Shown: positions 34,881-46,671 of the stretch, piece by piece | Layout: each line of letters starts with the position of its first letter | Position numbering within the stretch: the first letter of the stretch is position 1 | NCBI GenBank assembly: GCA_018715985.1 | Contig: DVKO01000114.1 | Coordinates: 1 to 46,671, forward strand | Origin: Candidatus Enterenecus avicola | Lineage (GTDB): Bacteria > Bacillota > Clostridia > Oscillospirales > Oscillospiraceae | DNA length: 46,671 nucleotides | Direction of reading: 5' to 3' | The notes under the pieces: generated by a model | The model's input: the letters and a program-made list of their open reading frames with translations, nothing else | Database searches by the model: none | What the model was told of the DNA's origin: nothing | Translations under genes and position numbers: made by a program

Positions 34881-34916
34881 AAAACGGACCGAATGGAACT
34901 CCATTCGGTCCGTTTT
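34881..34916. terminator. Terminator hairpin (insertion target of MITE copy A)
   Basis: AAAACGGACCGAATGGA-AC-TCCATTCGGTCCGTTTT. Confidence 0.8.
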
Positions 34917-35102
34917 GAGCGTGTCGAAAAAGTTCGACACGCTTCTCAAAAATGCAAGCATTTTTTCGAGGGGATGCAGCCCGCTGTATGCATAATCGGG
35001 TCAAAGTACGACCCGATTCCACACTGGCGGGCTCCAGAAGTGTTTTTTTCGATGCTCATGTCCCCGAAAAAACAGATTTTCGATTTATTTTTCCATCTTC
35101 GG
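34917..35102 (+). mobile_element. MITE copy A (right end lost)
   Basis: Near-identical to 44130-44313; begins GAGCGTGTCGAAAAAG directly after the hairpin; similarity stops at CCATCTTCGG. Confidence 0.8.
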
Positions 35103-40292: not shown

Positions 40293-41186
40293 TTAGATCT
40301 CCGCCAGCTGGGCCAGCTTGCGCAGCCGGTGGTTCAGCGCAGACTTGCTCACCGGCGGGGTGCACAGCTCTGCCAGCTGGGCCAGGGTCAGCTCCGGGTG
40401 GGCCATGCGCAGGTCCACGGCCTCCTTGAGCTTCTCCGGCAGGTCCTCCAGCATCCCCCGCTCTTCCAGGCGATAGATGGCCTCCATCTGCCACCGGGCC
40501 GCCTCCACCGTCTTATCCAGATTGGCGGCGTCACAGTTGACCCTGCGGTTGACGCTGCCCCGTAAATCCCGCTCCAGCTTGGCCGTCATAATCTCCATGG
40601 CGGACACCGGGGCCCCGATGGTGGTGAGAAAATCTTCAATATGGTCACTTTGCTTGAAATAGGTCACGTGATTTCCCTTTCGCTGGGTGTCCTTGGGGGT
40701 GAACCCCAGCTCCCGGAGCAGCGCAATGCTCTCCCGGCCCACCGCAGCGTGGGAGGTGGCCAGCTCCAGATGGTAGCTCTTGCCCGGATCGGTCACGGAG
40801 CCGCCGGCCAGGAAGGCCCCCCGGAAAAATGCCGTCTGGCAGTGCTCCTCCTCCAGATGGGCAAAGTTGATGTGCAGCGAAACCGCACTGTCCCGCTCCA
40901 ATCCAAAGGTGTCAAATACCGTGTGCAGTTTGGCCGGGTCCTCCAGCAAAAAACTGCCCTTTCCCTCACCGGGAGACGGGACCACATCAAACTCCACCCG
41001 AAACGCCTTGCGAAACAGCTGGGGCAGCCGCAGCTTGAACTGGGGCGACTCGGTGATGATGCGCACTTGGTTGGCTTGAAAGGTGTTGCAATAGAGCAAG
41101 ATCCCATAGGCCTCGGCCTGGGCGCAGCAGCGGCGGCTCATGGATTGCTTGCACAGTTCTTGTTTTACCTGGGCAGAAAAGGTCAC
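40293..41186 (-). CDS. whiA: DNA-binding protein WhiA
   Basis: FS..VK.EL, F.RGAFLAGGS..DP...YHLE, VNR..NCD.AN..K and SKS.LNHRLRK motifs; GTG start (ATG 41192 is an alternative). Confidence 0.93.
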   Translation of the reverse strand: MTFSAQVKQELCKQSMSRRCCAQAEAYGILLYCNTFQANQVRIITESPQFKLRLPQLFRKAFRVEFDVVPSPGEGKGSFLLEDPAKLHTVFDTFGLERDSAVSLHINFAHLEEEHCQTAFFRGAFLAGGSVTDPGKSYHLELATSHAAVGRESIALLRELGFTPKDTQRKGNHVTYFKQSDHIEDFLTTIGAPVSAMEIMTAKLERDLRGSVNRRVNCDAANLDKTVEAARWQMEAIYRLEERGMLEDLPEKLKEAVDLRMAHPELTLAQLAELCTPPVSKSALNHRLRKLAQLAEI

Positions 41187-41210
41187 TTGCATCTGCTCCT
41201 TTATCAAATC

Positions 41211-42200
41211 TCAAAATATCTGGGTGTGTCCCCGCTGCTTGTAGAGTTCCATGACCGCATTGGCCACCTTTTCCCCGGAATGTCTGGCGTATCCGATGTT
41301 CTCGTCGGTCAAGGGACGGCACACCACCTCGGCCCCCAGCAGCTCCATCTCCCGGCGATCCACCACCAGCGGCTCAGAATCCTCCTGCCGGTAGCGGCTG
41401 AGCAGCTCACCGGAGAGCGTAGCGTTGTTGCACAGGCACAGATCCACCAGCTTAGGCCCGCCGTGCTCCAGCAGGGCCGCCAAATGATCCGAGGCGGTCA
41501 TACCCTCCGTCTCCCCGTCCTGGGTCATGATGTTGCACACATAAATCTTCAAAGCGGCGCTTTCCTCAATGGCATGGGAAATCCCATCCACCAGCAGATT
41601 GGGAATGACGCTGGTGTACAGACTTCCCGGCCCCAGCAAAATCACATCTGCCCGGGCAATGGCCTCCAGGGCCGCAGGCAAGGCCGGCGGATGCTCGGGG
41701 ATGAGCCGTACATGGTGAATGCCGCAGTTCTGCTGCTTTTTGAAGGCGAAAATTTTGGACTCCCCGCATACCCGGGTGCCGTTTTCAAATACGGCCTCCA
41801 GCTGAATGTTCGCATTGGTCACGGGCAATATGGTGCCGCGGATGGCCAGCACCTGGCTCATCTGGGCCACCGCCTGGTCGAAGGAGGGGGAGATCCCGTC
41901 CAACGCCGCCAGAAGCAGGTTTCCAAAGGCCTGCCCGGCCAGTCGTCCCTCCGGGTAGCGGTAGGCCAGCAGGGTGCGCATGAGGGATTCCTCATCTGCC
42001 AGGGCCTCCATGCAGTTTCGGATGTCTCCCGGTGGGGGCATCCCCAATTCCTCCCGCAGTGTCCCGGAGCCTCCTCCGTCATCCGCCACGGTGACAATGG
42101 CGGTCAGATCATCTGTGCAATTTTTCAGGCCGCGCAGCACCGCAGAAAGCCCATGCCCGCCGCCAATGGCCACAATAGCCGGACTGTGTCTCTTTCCCAT
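41211..42200 (-). CDS. yvcK: YvcK/GlmR (CofD-like) UDP-GlcNAc-binding protein
   Basis: IGGGHGLS..LRGLK, VTVADDGG.SG, PPGD.RNC and GPGSLYTS.IPNL motifs. Confidence 0.92.
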   Translation of the reverse strand: MGKRHSPAIVAIGGGHGLSAVLRGLKNCTDDLTAIVTVADDGGGSGTLREELGMPPPGDIRNCMEALADEESLMRTLLAYRYPEGRLAGQAFGNLLLAALDGISPSFDQAVAQMSQVLAIRGTILPVTNANIQLEAVFENGTRVCGESKIFAFKKQQNCGIHHVRLIPEHPPALPAALEAIARADVILLGPGSLYTSVIPNLLVDGISHAIEESAALKIYVCNIMTQDGETEGMTASDHLAALLEHGGPKLVDLCLCNNATLSGELLSRYRQEDSEPLVVDRREMELLGAEVVCRPLTDENIGYARHSGEKVANAVMELYKQRGHTQIF

Positions 42201-42203
42201 CGT

Positions 42204-43067
42204 TCAAGCCCTCGTCATATCCCGGTGATTTTCCGACACCTGATAGCCCAGTTCCCGGACGTGCTGAGCCAAGGCGTGGGTCATGGCTACCGAGCGGTGA
42301 TGCCCTCCGGTGCAGCCAATGGCCACTACTACCATACTCTTCCCCTCCTCCACAAACTGCGGCAGAAGGAAGTCTATCATATCTTTCAACTTCTCCAGAA
42401 ACTCGTTGCTCTGGGGAAACTGAAAGACGTAGTCCCGTACTCCGTCATCCAGACCAGTCTGGGTGCGCAGCCCCTCCACATAAAAGGGATTGGGGAGGAA
42501 TCGCACATCAAAGACCAGATCAGCCTCCATAGGCAGGCCGTATTTGAAGCCAAACGACGTGACGCAGACGTTCAGTTCGCTGTCCTTTTTCCGCCCCGGA
42601 TAAACCAGCTCCAGCACTCGGTCCCGCAGCTTGCGGGTGGACATGGCGTCGGTACGCAGCACGATATTGGAGCGGCTGCGCACCGGCTCCATGAGCTCCC
42701 GCTCCTTTTGCACGGCCCGGGCCAGGGTGCCCTGGGTTTCCATGAGCGGGTGGCTGCGCCGGGTCTCTTTGTAGCGCTTGATGATGGTCTGGTCATCCGC
42801 CTCCACAAACAGGATCTGGTATTTCACCTGCATTCGGTCCAAGGTCTCCAGGGCCTCAAACAGCCCATCAAAGCTGCTGCCGCCCCGGATGTCGCACACC
42901 ACCGCCGCCCGCTTGTGGGCCTCGCTGCCCATCTGGCACAGCTCCGCAAACTTTGGGATGAGTACTGGAGGCAGATTATCCACGCAGAAATAACCGCTGT
43001 CCTCCAAAATGGACATTACCGTGGACTTTCCTGCCCCGGAAAGTCCAGACACAATGAAAAGCTCCAT
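42204..43067 (-). CDS. rapZ: RapZ/YvcJ nucleotide-binding protein
   Basis: SGLSGAGKS, CVDNLP, RYKETRR.HPL, SFGFKYG.P, DVRFLPNP and GCTGG.HRSV motifs. Confidence 0.93.
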   Translation of the reverse strand: MELFIVSGLSGAGKSTVMSILEDSGYFCVDNLPPVLIPKFAELCQMGSEAHKRAAVVCDIRGGSSFDGLFEALETLDRMQVKYQILFVEADDQTIIKRYKETRRSHPLMETQGTLARAVQKERELMEPVRSRSNIVLRTDAMSTRKLRDRVLELVYPGRKKDSELNVCVTSFGFKYGLPMEADLVFDVRFLPNPFYVEGLRTQTGLDDGVRDYVFQFPQSNEFLEKLKDMIDFLLPQFVEEGKSMVVVAIGCTGGHHRSVAMTHALAQHVRELGYQVSENHRDMTRA

Positions 43068-43080
43068 ATCAACTGCCTCC

Positions 43081-43992
43081 TCACTTGAGGTATCGCACCT
43101 CTGGCTCCAGCCCCACGCCGGTGGCCTCATACACCCGCCCTCGAACCTCATCCATCAGGCGTAAAATATCACTGCACGTGGCATTCCCTGTGTTGATGAC
43201 AAATCCGGCGTGCTTTTCCGATACCATGGCTCCGCCCACCCGCAGGCCCTTGAGACCACACTGGTCAATGAGGGCTGCGGCAAAATGTCCCTGGGGCCGC
43301 TTGAAGGTGGACCCGGCGCTGGGGTATTCCAGCGGCTGTTTCTCCCGGCGTCTTGCGGAAAAATCACGCATGGTCTCCCGTATCTTCTCGGGATCCCCCC
43401 GCTGGAGCCCCACCTTTGCCCACAGCACCAGGTGAGTGCCGTCGCTGAATGCAGAGTGGCGGTAGCGGAATTGGCACCGCTCCCCCTCCCAGGTCTCCAC
43501 TGTTCCGTCGGGACAGAGCACCCCCACCTGGCGCACCACCTGCACCATCTCTCCGCCATAGGCTCCCGCGTTCATGGTCACGCCGCCGCCCAGGCTTCCG
43601 GGAATGCCGTGGGCAAATTCCAGCCCCGTCAAGCCCTCCTGGGCAGCCTTGGTGGCCAACTGGGAGAGAAGAATACCGGACTGCGCGGTGAGTTCTTTCC
43701 CGCAGACCTGGCAGTCGGCATATTGAGGCACCGTTTTCACCACAAAGGCGTTCACCCCACTGTCATCCACCAGCAGATTGGAGCCGTTTCCCACCATCAC
43801 CGTGGGAACCTCCCACGCCCGGGCCAGTTTTACCGCTTCTACCAGCTCCTCTGTCTGCCGGGGACAGGCCATGAGTGCGGCAGGACCGCCCACCCGAAAG
43901 GTGGTATGGTGGCTCATGGGCTCGTCCAGTCGCAGCTCCAGCTCCGGCAGCTGCTGGCGCAGCTGTCGGTGCAGATTATGTATCTCATTCAT
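43081..43992 (-). CDS. murB: UDP-N-acetylenolpyruvoylglucosamine reductase
   Basis: HTTFRVGG.A, GNGSNLL, GIPG..GG...MNAGAYG, QPLEYPSAGS.FKRP and S.KHA.F motifs. Confidence 0.95.
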   Translation of the reverse strand: MNEIHNLHRQLRQQLPELELRLDEPMSHHTTFRVGGPAALMACPRQTEELVEAVKLARAWEVPTVMVGNGSNLLVDDSGVNAFVVKTVPQYADCQVCGKELTAQSGILLSQLATKAAQEGLTGLEFAHGIPGSLGGGVTMNAGAYGGEMVQVVRQVGVLCPDGTVETWEGERCQFRYRHSAFSDGTHLVLWAKVGLQRGDPEKIRETMRDFSARRREKQPLEYPSAGSTFKRPQGHFAAALIDQCGLKGLRVGGAMVSEKHAGFVINTGNATCSDILRLMDEVRGRVYEATGVGLEPEVRYLK

Positions 43993-44098
43993 ATGCAAAC
44001 CCTCCGGCTTGTGTTACGCAATCTATATTCGGTCATAAAGACACAAGTGTATTATACCAGACTTCCCCGAAAAATAAAAGTCTCCTTCGCCTGGAACG

Positions 44099-44129
44099 TG
44101 AGAGGGGCGTTGACGTGCAACGCCCCTCT
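44099..44129. repeat. Target-site duplication, left copy (terminator hairpin)
   Basis: TGAGAGGGGCGTTGACGTGCAACGCCCCTCT is identical to 44395-44425. Confidence 0.9.
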
Positions 44130-44396
44130 GAGCGTGTCGAAAAAGTTCGACACGCTTCTCAAAAATGCAAGCATTTTTGAGAGGGGATGCAGCCCGCTGC
44201 GCGCATAATCGGGTCAAAGGACGCCCCGATTCCACACTGGCGGGCTGAGAAGTGTTTTTTTCGATGCTCATGTCCCCGAAAAAAACAGATTCAATTTATT
44301 TTCCCATCTTCGGATGGGAAAACTCTGCCGAGGGCTTTTTGACGATGCAAGATCATCTGCCCTTCTTGCATTGACGTGAGCTTTTTCGACAGCCTG
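44130..44396 (+). mobile_element. MITE copy B (complete, about 265 bp), probably IS1182-family derived
   Basis: Terminal inverted repeats TGTCGAAAAAGTTC / GAGCTTTTTCGACA; no transposase; flanked by a direct repeat of the terminator hairpin. Confidence 0.85.
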
Positions 44397-44425
44397 AGAG
44401 GGGCGTTGACGTGCAACGCCCCTCT
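44395..44425. repeat. Target-site duplication, right copy (terminator of the split spore gene)
   Basis: Identical 31-mer; self-complementary AGAGGGGCGTTG/CAACGCCCCTCT; 9 nt beyond the stop at 44434. Confidence 0.9.
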
Positions 44426-44433
44426 CAGTTTGC

Positions 44434-44841
44434 TTACCCTTGACAGCAGGGGTCGCAGTGTTTGGCCTCCTGGTACCCTTCCGGGGGTGCAACAGTGTTG
44501 GGCGGGAAGAACTCTTCGGTGGGGAACTGTACCTTGCGGAACAGGGCGCAGGGGTCCTCCTCGCTGCCGCCCGTGCACTCCTTGCTGGGAATGCAGTAGT
44601 CATAGGCAGGGATGAGCAGTTGACTGTCCCGCTCCAGGCGGATCAAGGAGAACTGTCCCAAGGTCACATACACCCGTTTCCCCTCGCTGCCCATGGACAG
44701 CTCACCGGGGAAGCAAGAGGTGATGCAGGGCGGGATGTCGCTGGGGTCACAGCCACAGCTGCAGCTGCATCCGTTGTTCTCACAGTTCTCCACCAGCTTC
44801 ATGCTGAGGATGATGGGATCCACAGCCTCTACTGTTGCGAT
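44434..44841 (-). pseudogene. 3' half of a Cys-rich spore coat/exosporium (CsxA-like) gene interrupted by a serine-recombinase element; probably restorable
   Basis: 135 aa starting IATVEAVDPIILSMK...; no RBS or start; motif VYVTLGQFSLIRLERDSQLLIPAYDYC.P.KEC...DPC..F resembles (from memory) the C-terminal part of clostridial CsxA; begins at the att-like dyad centre. Confidence 0.7.
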
Positions 44842-44855
44842 CAACCAGGTAGGCT
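44824..44855. other. Putative att (recombination junction) site
   Basis: Dyad AGCCT-N5-GTTG-CGAT-CAAC-N5-AGGCT centred on GA 44839-44840, at the gene/recombinase junction. Confidence 0.65.
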
Positions 44856-46292
44856 CCCCCTTGCCCGGCAAAAGATCACCCGGACCTCTCCCTCGCCGTC
44901 CACAGTGATGCGCTCCACCAGTCTGGCCATGTCCGTCCGGGTCATCTCCCGCCAGTCCATCTGTCTGCGCACCCATTCCTGCGCCTGTTGTACATCCAAT
45001 AAAGATTTATTTTGCAAGGACTGTAAAGTTAAAATCCTTGCCTGAATTTCTCTGCGCTTTTCAAGAAAATCTTCCAAGGTCATAGCCTCGTTGGCGTAGA
45101 GCTGCGCATATCGCTGTTCCTTTCGTTCCAGCCGTTTCCACTCATCGGCAGCTTTTCGCCCCTCATCCCGGTGCTCCAGCGCCCAGTGTACCAGCCTCTC
45201 CTCCACCTGCCCCGCAGGCGGGCCACCCTGCATCACATATCCGGCAATGGCACGCAGAAGCTGATTCTCCTCCACTTTGGTTCGGTTTTCACACAGCCCC
45301 TGGTCGTTTCCCGCGCACTTCCAGTAGATGCGGGTATGGGCATAGGTATAGGTTTTCCGACAAAAGCTCCTCCCACACTCCTGACAGATCATCAATCCGC
45401 TGAATGCATGACAGGCGCTGTATCGCCTCCGTACCTCATGTCCGTCCCGCTCCTGGATTTGGCTGCGGGCCTTCCGCTGGGCCTGGGCCTGTTCAAATTG
45501 CTCCGGTGTGACAATGGCCCACTGCGGGCGGAGGTGGTGATATTGCTCCTGGGGCAAAAGTTTTCTCTGACGCCCCGTGAGGTAGTTTTCCACCTCATAC
45601 TTGTGGTTGACGTGATGCCCGCAGTAGATGGGATTGGTCAAAATGCGGTGGACGGCCGACGGAGTCCAGCCGCAGCCCTGCTTGGTGCCATATCCCCAGG
45701 CATCCAACTGTTGGGCAATGGTACGACACCCCAGCCCCTGCTCCACATACATCTGATAGATCAGACGCACCACATCCGCCTCCGCCTGGTTGATCTGAAG
45801 GGTGAAATTATCTATCCGGTCATATCCATAAATGCACCGGGGCACCCTCCCCTTCTGAGCGTTGAGCTTTTTCCCGAACTTTACCCGCTTGCTCAAATTG
45901 GCGCTCTCCTCCTGGGCTAAGGCCCCGAATACGGTGAGGACGAACTCGGATTCCCCGAGGCTGTCCATATCCGCGGTGAGAAAGCGAGTATTCACCCCCA
46001 ACTCCTTCAGGGCCCGGACACTCTGGAGAAAGTCCACGGTATTTCGGGCAAACCTGGAAATGTCTTTGACCACCACCAGTTCAAACCGGTGGTCTTTCGC
46101 GTCGTGGAGCAACGCCTGAAACTGCTCCCGCTTTTGCAATCGTGTTCCGGAAATCCCTTCATCTGCATAGATCTTTACCAGCTCGTATCCGTTGCGCTGG
46201 GCATATGCCTGAAAGAATTCCTTTTGATGGGCCAAGCTGTCCAACTGCTCCTCTTTGGCGGTGGAGACCCGACAATAGGCTGCGATCCGCAT
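44841..46292 (-). CDS. Large serine recombinase (SpoIVCA/CisA-like: resolvase, recombinase and Zn-ribbon domains)
   Basis: YCRVST catalytic Ser, DEGISGT...R..F, KDISRFARN, ES...SKRV..G, YGY, IL.NP.Y.G and CQECG...C...C; GGGAGGAG RBS. Confidence 0.93.
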   Translation of the reverse strand: MRIAAYCRVSTAKEEQLDSLAHQKEFFQAYAQRNGYELVKIYADEGISGTRLQKREQFQALLHDAKDHRFELVVVKDISRFARNTVDFLQSVRALKELGVNTRFLTADMDSLGESEFVLTVFGALAQEESANLSKRVKFGKKLNAQKGRVPRCIYGYDRIDNFTLQINQAEADVVRLIYQMYVEQGLGCRTIAQQLDAWGYGTKQGCGWTPSAVHRILTNPIYCGHHVNHKYEVENYLTGRQRKLLPQEQYHHLRPQWAIVTPEQFEQAQAQRKARSQIQERDGHEVRRRYSACHAFSGLMICQECGRSFCRKTYTYAHTRIYWKCAGNDQGLCENRTKVEENQLLRAIAGYVMQGGPPAGQVEERLVHWALEHRDEGRKAADEWKRLERKEQRYAQLYANEAMTLEDFLEKRREIQARILTLQSLQNKSLLDVQQAQEWVRRQMDWREMTRTDMARLVERITVDGEGEVRVIFCRARGSLPG

Positions 46293-46310
46293 CTTCTTCA
46301 CTCCTCCCAT

Positions 46311-46338
46311 AAAAAAAGAGAAGGGATCTCCCCTTCTC
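46311..46338 (-). terminator. Intrinsic terminator between the small ORF and the recombinase
   Basis: Minus-strand AGAGAAGGGA-GA-TCCCTTCTCT followed by TTTTTT. Confidence 0.65.
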
Positions 46339-46445
46339 TATCTCCAGCAGCTGCACAGCTTCTCCATTAAAATCTGCATCCACAATTCTGCCAATTCTCC
46401 GCCTCGATTGGGGTCTTCCATCACAAAATGCACCGTTTTTTTCAT
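46338..46445 (-). CDS. Small hypothetical protein, 35 aa (MKKTVHFVMEDPNRGGELAELWMQILMEKLCSCWR); candidate recombination directionality factor
   Basis: Strong GGGGAGGAGG RBS before ATG 46445; directly upstream of the recombinase. Confidence 0.55.
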   Translation of the reverse strand: MKKTVHFVMEDPNRGGELAELWMQILMEKLCSCWR

Positions 46446-46466: not shown

Positions 46467-46497
46467 AGCATATGAGCATCTCCCCCGCCCATATACC
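46467..46497 (-). promoter_or_regulatory. Putative mother-cell sigma-E-type promoter
   Basis: Minus-strand GGTATAT-N16-CATATGCT matches the B. subtilis sigE consensus ATA-N16/18-CATAcanT; directly upstream of the small ORF RBS. Confidence 0.5.
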
Positions 46498-46517: not shown

Positions 46518-46544
46518 CAGGGGCCGACCCATGGTCGGCCCCTG
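46518..46544. terminator. Terminator hairpin (insertion target of MITE copy C)
   Basis: CAGGGGCCGACC-CAT-GGTCGGCCCCTG preceded by an A run (T tract on the minus strand). Confidence 0.75.
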
Positions 46545-46671
46545 AGCGTGTCGAAAAAGTTCGACACGCTTCTCAAAAATGCAAGCATTTTTTCGAGGGG
46601 ATGCAGCCCGCTGCGCGCAGAATCGGGTCAAAGGACGACCCGATTCCACACTGGCGGGCTGAGAAGTGTTT
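46544..46671 (+). mobile_element. MITE copy C (cut by the window end)
   Basis: Near-identical to 44130-44257; starts GAGCGTGTCGAAAAAG right after the hairpin. Confidence 0.85.

Follow-up and report, generated by a model that had tools for sequence, protein, structure and literature searches.

The 46,671-nt contig DVKO01000114.1 of Candidatus Enterenecus avicola (GCA_018715985.1; the whole contig is referred to below as the window, and the genome as G000) carries one end of an element that splits a Cys-rich host gene. Both junctions with the host gene are present in this genome, and the element holds its single detected copy of nagB and nagA (nagBA). The predicted order of the parts is attL, nagB, nagA, a 35-aa ORF, a large serine recombinase and attR, the last of these being the site analyzed here (Table 1). 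The likely interpretation is that this is a domesticated, fixed element of about 4 kb that is excised only in the mother cell of sporulating cells, by crossover at positions 44828-44829.

Table 1. Coordinates of the split gene, the element and its predicted attachment sites (window positions unless another contig is given)
Feature	Position	Strand	Basis or remark
3' half of host gene, Glu codon to stop	44434..44829	-	tblastn, in-silico join
5' half of host gene	G000:C125:4281-4738	+	tblastn, in-silico join
Predicted crossover dinucleotide GA (TC on + strand)	44828..44829	-	shared core GAG with far junction; attP axis
Crossover partner on far contig	G000:C125:4737-4738		first two Glu-codon bases
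Predicted attR host (B') arm	44803..44827	-	outer limit approximate
Predicted attR element (P) arm	44830..44855	-	pairs with P' arm of far junction
Dyad of the original prediction	44824..44855	.	in sequence, not functional axis
Large serine recombinase, 489 aa from first ATG	44841..46310	-	PF00239, PF07508, PF13408; phrog_95 integrase
35-aa ORF, candidate recombination directionality factor (RDF)	46338..46445	-	conserved; predicted complex
Sigma-E-type motif upstream of 35-aa ORF and recombinase	46467..46496	-	motif search, alignment
Hairpin after nagA, probable terminator, duplicated by repeat insertion	46518..46544	.	links contig end to C125
Partial copy of ~270-bp dispersed repeat inside element	46543..46671	.	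assembly breaks there

Large serine recombinases bind imperfect dyads around a 2-bp crossover. The original prediction took the sequence for an att-like site of the large serine recombinase next to it, and this assignment is upheld: the 32 bases and the GA at 44839-44840 read as given, the TGA at 44841-44843 ends the 489-aa ORF, and the split host gene adjoins it. The predicted crossover itself, however, can be corrected with high confidence, by 11 bases, to the GA of the host Glu codon. The 5' half of the host gene matches the orthologue consensus through N-L-P-V-A-V-V-E and diverges after it, and at the 3' junction the match to orthologues begins with E-A-V-D-P, i.e., at the Glu codon and not at 44839-44840, where identity to uninterrupted orthologues had been expected to switch. 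Accordingly, only part of the arm that had been read as host codons A-T-V-E-A is host sequence: E-A onward is, but A-T-V is not host coding. The corresponding A-V-V is already supplied by the 5' half on the far contig, C125, and AVV is present in 109 of the 110 intact proteins with a readable motif (120 fetched), whereas the three codons ahead of Glu at the 3' junctions of relatives vary freely (ALV, AMV, LSV, AIV, LTV, PTV, AAV, FMV, SMT). The P arm contains these non-coding A-T-V look-alike codons along with the recombinase stop and the GATC at the center of the original dyad.

In six elements, all pairs of matching dinucleotides lying no more than 40 bases from the two junctions were scored; the in-register Glu-codon GA is the top or joint-top axis in all six, and it is the sole top pair that preserves the frame. 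The attP dyad at 44828-44829 has 15 of 20 pairs here and 12-16 of 20 in each of 10 nag-type elements, a score of 12 being reached by 0.24% of random pairs, and this symmetry is maintained with several alternative pair types; the symmetry of attB is low (5-7 of 20). The crossover dinucleotide is common to both junctions in 16 of 16 elements, and at 44828-44829 it lies on the attP axis. Six sister elements have Asn instead of Glu at this codon, and in four of them exactly AA, its first two bases, is shared. The axis is therefore fixed at 44828-44829 from the attP symmetry of the nag-type elements and the exact AA core of these four sisters. The B' arms share 88% identity among 7 species, and the element arms 68-70%. 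Cognate arms pair better than permuted ones (120 vs a mean of 113.9, p=0.033, 5040 permutations) in a comparison of 7 related species, which are kin and not independent. In silico, joining at the GA yields a 283-aa ORF with 18 Cys in this genome and ORFs of 276-283 aa in all 16 elements, with no insertion in frame, so that precise excision would restore the frame of the split gene in every case.

The dyad originally centered on 44839-44840 does exist (9 of 15 pairs), but its axis is wrong and the pairing by itself is within chance: at least 9 of 15 pairs are reached by 0.84% of all genome positions under the same scoring, and the homologous center has only 4-8 of 15 in 15 related elements. A GA/TC crossover inside the Ile codon fails at the far junction, where the register partner is a Val codon without TC; the same central dinucleotide and arms had been expected there, but the in-register TC is absent and so are symmetric arms after excision. 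An in-frame TC partner is available in only three of six elements, and attP symmetry then drops to 3-4 of 20, with 4 of 20 in this genome. The join through the Ile codon would, as proposed, be in frame, but it adds 8 codons that are absent from intact orthologues. A crossover at the TC or AT of GATC was considered first because GATC is present at both junctions in this genome; it is rejected by the far-junction register and the dinucleotide scoring. The near and far GATC mirror each other across the Glu-codon axis, the far one being a copy of the same P-arm motif. The proposal that excision leaves the recombinase stop on the circle holds for this genome but does not reflect a conserved design, with the stop in the P arm in four of ten clade elements and beyond the crossover in six. 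The recombinase reads through the crossover in L003 (genome G036), L005, L006 and L160-L162, so that excision would change its C-terminus there (6 or 83 residues longer). L003 and L004 are loci of isolate genomes.

The element is contiguous in the genomes of 5 species and on 3 metagenome contigs, with a length of 3763-3874 bp; in this genome, two contigs taken together would give about 4173 bp. Intact orthologues (~280 aa), used as tblastn queries, place the 5' half of the host gene at 4281-4742 of contig C125, where it is followed by nagB, nagA and a copy of a ~270-bp repeat; another copy of this repeat closes the window. Next to the copy in the window is a hairpin with a unique 22-nt match to the nagA-side flank of C125 (next best 7), and the other repeat flank of C125 matches contig C48. 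G036, a relative in which the element is contiguous, also has this hairpin, there situated between nagA and the 35-aa ORF. Because the hairpin flanks pair the left side of C125 with the window and its right side with C48, and the order in G036 agrees, C125 is probably mis-joined at the repeat; the location of the two halves on different contigs, with C125 running past the repeat into unrelated genes, may also represent a real rearrangement. The flavodoxin and sigK genes that follow the repeat on C125 had been considered as part of the element; a position of sigK inside it is rejected by the flanking-hairpin pairing, and both genes are absent at this locus in contiguous relatives. The element contains no phage structural or replication genes in these relatives, its 3.8 kb being taken up entirely by nagB, nagA, the 35-aa ORF and the recombinase.

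The ~270-bp repeat is non-coding, occurs in the window also at 44129-44398 and 34916-35102, and has 83 BLAST matches in G000. It sits in hairpins, and the entire hairpin (14-34 bp) is duplicated so as to flank it on either side, which presumably resembles the behavior of terminator-targeting IS. A partner of at least 14 nt is found for 28 of 46 left flanks. The two flanks do not match in six of the nine full copies, so many contigs of this assembly may be mis-joined at the repeat.

Both halves of the host gene are under purifying selection (dN/dS of about 0.02-0.09 vs six relatives), even though only 10-56 open codons precede the 3' half. The host gene, searched as halves and as 3-4 intact orthologues, matches no family in NCBIfam or in a Pfam copy that lacks the CsxA family PF27077, and it has no plasmid match. 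The model of the protein is beta-rich with a pLDDT of 62, and structure searches give no Foldseek match at E 0.001 and a best VIA-align Z of 3.8 in PDB. A weak lead comes from an Atlas neighbor cluster in which 12% of the members are CsxA, at 0.94-0.96, with a recognition value below the mark of the tool; it hints that the protein might be CsxA-like. A murB, rapZ-like, CofD/YvcK-like and whiA cluster lies next to the site (40293-43998), and the order purA - host gene - murB is kept in relatives. We infer that this is probably a spore-envelope or spore-surface gene. In six other genomes of the genus (G020, G028, G071, G087, G094, G099), the gene is also broken at about codons 31-50, a second insertion hotspot.

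The recombinase scores over the Pfam cut-offs for the Resolvase, Recombinase and Zn-ribbon domains and thus has the composition of a large serine recombinase. The catalytic YCRVST motif and the four zinc cysteines are invariant in an alignment of 15 sequences, and dN/dS is about 0.13-0.27. Its dS (1.1-1.75) exceeds that of the host gene (0.4-1.0), which may indicate module exchange. An alignment of 11 elements shows the 35-aa ORF to be conserved; it has 19 representatives at E 0.001 and matches no PHROG or Pfam family. The predicted complex of its product with recombinase residues 150-489 scores 0.74, as against 0.09 for the best of three controls; of 157 solved pairs 116 attain the mark for this score, compared with 2 of 215 mismatched pairs, counts that are rough for our own alignments. 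The runs agree in at least 80% of the contacts, the partner has a pLDDT of at least 75, and the predicted contacts involve recombinase residues 344-380, 443-464 and 474-484, i.e., the zinc domain beside the coiled coil. This predicted site matches the one where known RDFs are predicted to bind, according to PMC12286644. The modeling supports binding of the 35-aa protein to the recombinase and, because of this predicted binding, the ORF is a candidate directionality factor.

Searches with simple promoter motifs detect a sigma-E-type motif ahead of the 35-aa ORF in all 10 nag-type elements and in neither of two sister elements; the spacer was widened after the alignment had been seen (three of ten match at 16-18, ten of ten at 15-18). 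The motif has 20 matches genome-wide, one of which is this site, and the ORFs behind seven others are spoIIIAA-like, spoVD-like, spoIIR, ssb, D-Ala-D-Ala carboxypeptidase, amino-acid carrier and glyA genes, two of the seven being non-sporulation genes. In Clostridioides difficile, sigma-E-dependent genes listed in PMC7438776 (Table S6) include spoIIIAA, an ssb and the skin RDF gene, and the sigma-E promoter of the latter has the same spacing as the motif here (PMC7438776, Table S6). At 16 of 16 loci, the host gene has a sigma-K-type motif 86-105 bases upstream (51 matches to the pattern in the genome), and nagB is preceded by a motif of the sigma-A type in 7 of 7. This genome contains an intact sigK (on C125), spoIIR and a spoIIIAA-like gene; spoIVA is not found in it (91.6% complete) or in G008, and is found in three of five genomes.

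From these features, we infer excision in the mother cell. Sigma-E would transcribe the 35-aa ORF and the recombinase; the 35-aa protein would bind the zinc domain of the recombinase at the base of the coiled coil and permit recombination of attL with attR; and this would release a circle and rebuild the 283-aa gene, which would then be transcribed by sigma-K. The element would be retained in the forespore. In growing cells, nagBA would run from its own sigma-A-type promoter and, because these genes would be expressed during growth, loss of the element at that stage should be costly, most of all in species without glmS.

Among 78 genomes of the genus, the recombinase is present in all eight of the clade (this one and seven at 67-75% identity), and six more contain a 49-56% identical recombinase at the same codon. 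In a host-gene tree of 31 rows, in which the intact loci are a chosen subset, the nag-type rows form one clade (100/99) with all eight split, and split and intact alleles are mixed in the sister clade. The sister elements (L145 in G088, L146-L147 in G097, L148-L153, L158-L159) occupy the same codon, which is Asn there, with an AA crossover. The G088 element spans 4.0 kb and contains a 506-aa ORF that is aldehyde-dehydrogenase-like as read from its translation; the G097 element spans about 32 kb, with other recombinases inserted within its recombinase gene. Distant hosts are split at the same Glu codon (L033, L178, L180, L184, L032, L176, L283), some with recombinases that are 25% identical. 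At L282:4113-4625, the 5' half of the host gene comes after a 53%-identical recombinase but in the opposite orientation, joined at the same Glu codon, an arrangement that would result from either opposite insertion or inversion.

This distribution bears on the alternative that the element is still selfish and integrative, with the same crossover, but excised under stress or at random and moving between hosts, with nagBA as ordinary beneficial cargo. The patchy occurrence of the sister elements, with split and intact alleles side by side, their differences in size and cargo, the unrelated recombinases at the same codon (L033, L178, L180, L184) and the high dS of the recombinase would all fit such a history. 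The nag-type element, however, is fixed in its clade, its cargo has the dS of chromosomal genes, it contains no replication, transfer or phage genes, and its recombination unit carries a sporulation-type promoter motif, so that this explanation appears unlikely.

Less probable still is a fossil insertion that no longer excises, leaving the host halves as separate polypeptides or dispensable. No rejoined form or excised molecule appears in any collection searched: of the best 120 of 2123 matches, no intact protein is more than 75% identical to the 3' half; 80 metagenome loci, of which 70 are intact and distant, 7 are split and 3 are truncated at a contig end, include no intact form above 70% identity; and none is present at 6 viral loci or in the best phage-record match. 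An in-frame Met lies 9 codons past the crossover codon, and the element of this genome has received the repeat at which the assembly is broken. Nevertheless, the catalytic motif and zinc cysteines of the recombinase are intact and its dN/dS is low (about 0.13-0.27), attP symmetry is kept by alternative pairs, and the 35-aa ORF is conserved together with its promoter motif. The weakest alternative puts the crossover in the Ile codon and has the recombinase bind the local dyad. It accounts for that dyad and for the in-frame GATC of the far junction, which here permits a join in frame, but against the extra codons, the poor attP symmetry, the partner missing in half of the elements and the mirrored GATC it retains hardly any credibility.

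For the domesticated element proposed here, the cargo is of particular relevance. On C125, nagB and nagA both score over the NCBIfam cut-offs, and the nagBA of the element are the only genes for N-acetylglucosamine (GlcNAc) use detected in the clade. A single nagB is present in the seven clade genomes where the gene is found, the exception being G030 (82% complete), where it is not found, and nagA is single over the cut-off in five of five. Element-free relatives encode nagBA beside rsuA, a locus without nagBA in five of five clade genomes. The dS of nagA (0.58-0.64) equals that of purA (0.57-0.66). L002:1-445 from G013 is an element with nagB and no nagA before the 35-aa ORF; G013 retains glmS.

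Four of the eight clade genomes have lost an intact glmS, which is deleted with the flanks joined in G036, G009 and G030 and truncated here, and is present in G002, G008, G013 and G081. The remnant in this genome (G000:C107:30947-31351 and C123:6340-7614) has a frameshift and foreign DNA after about 50 codons, and the remainder of the gene is not found. Since glmS is not found in 22 of the 78 genomes of the genus, 18 of them outside the element clade, its loss is not caused by the element. A Streptococcus mutans glmS mutant is described as growing only with GlcNAc (PMC3306399). A NagE-type transporter is detected over the cut-off in three of five genomes and is not found in this one; direct uptake of glucosamine would weaken the dependence on nagBA.

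The closest counterparts are gene-intervening elements of sporulation, a group that includes skin, gin, vfbin and SPbeta. In Bacillus cereus ATCC 10987, gerE is interrupted by gin (with GirC and GirX), likewise a non-phage element that splits a mother-cell gene and combines a serine recombinase with a small RDF, and its excision is sporulation-specific (PMC5595907). Unlike the element described here, gin has a size of 28.6 kb, 31 genes and three recombinases, and only some strains carry it (PMC5595907), compared to about 4 kb, one recombinase, single-copy metabolic genes and fixation across species. The skin elements in sigK of Bacillus subtilis (SpoIVCA/Skr; PMC6957869) and C. difficile (CD1231/CD1234; PMC5025042) have a small RDF gene under sigma-E, which in B. 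subtilis lies directly upstream of the recombinase gene, as in the present case (PMC6957869). Here, by contrast, the target is not sigK, and there are no phage remnants; the C. difficile skin was reported to be deletable without loss of sporulation (PMC5025042), whereas this element contains the only detected nagBA. SPbeta in spsM (SprA/SprB) also combines a spore-surface target with a large serine recombinase and an RDF, but is an active prophage with stress-induced excision (PMC6957869), in contrast to the lack of phage genes here.

As for the host protein, CsxA of the Clostridium sporogenes exosporium (PMC7333573; bioRxiv 10.64898/2026.09.03.749163) is similarly Cys-rich, with a beta-rich predicted core and a late-sporulation-type promoter motif. 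Spore proteins of the CsxA and SPOCS type would be expected to have a SPOCS (DUF3794) fold and to form a trimer; the host model, at a pLDDT of 62, has a best Z of 3.8 in PDB. A direct sequence or structure match between the two was not obtained, and csxA lies in a zapA/U32 peptidase cluster (PMC7333573; bioRxiv 10.64898/2026.09.03.749163) as opposed to the purA - gene - murB order. A literature search found no description of the element or its target, with the provision that the supplementary lists of PMC10083194 may contain the gene and that most subscription papers lie outside the search. By analogy, the element would work in the manner of gin, skin and SPbeta.

The attachment site as first drawn is of little interest, and the finding is the element itself. 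It also yields a predicted base-exact attP/attB pair, GA and AA variants that form a natural series at a single codon, and a candidate RDF of very small size. Gene-intervening elements of spore-formers are usually explained as decayed prophages, retained through the need to reconstitute the interrupted gene (PMC6957869). In the present case, the only nagBA detected in the lineage have been taken over by a minimal element that is fixed across several species, some of them without glmS, so that the cargo would be a second force of retention, acting during growth. A more tentative possibility is that, in the species without glmS, a programmed-deletion element has turned into an essential metabolic locus, a two-way lock that could not be lost during growth and would be excised in the mother cell for the spore surface, triggered by a new family of 35-aa RDFs. 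If this is the case, nagBA would be the sole detected route from GlcNAc to glucosamine-6-phosphate for the cell wall in species that lack glmS.
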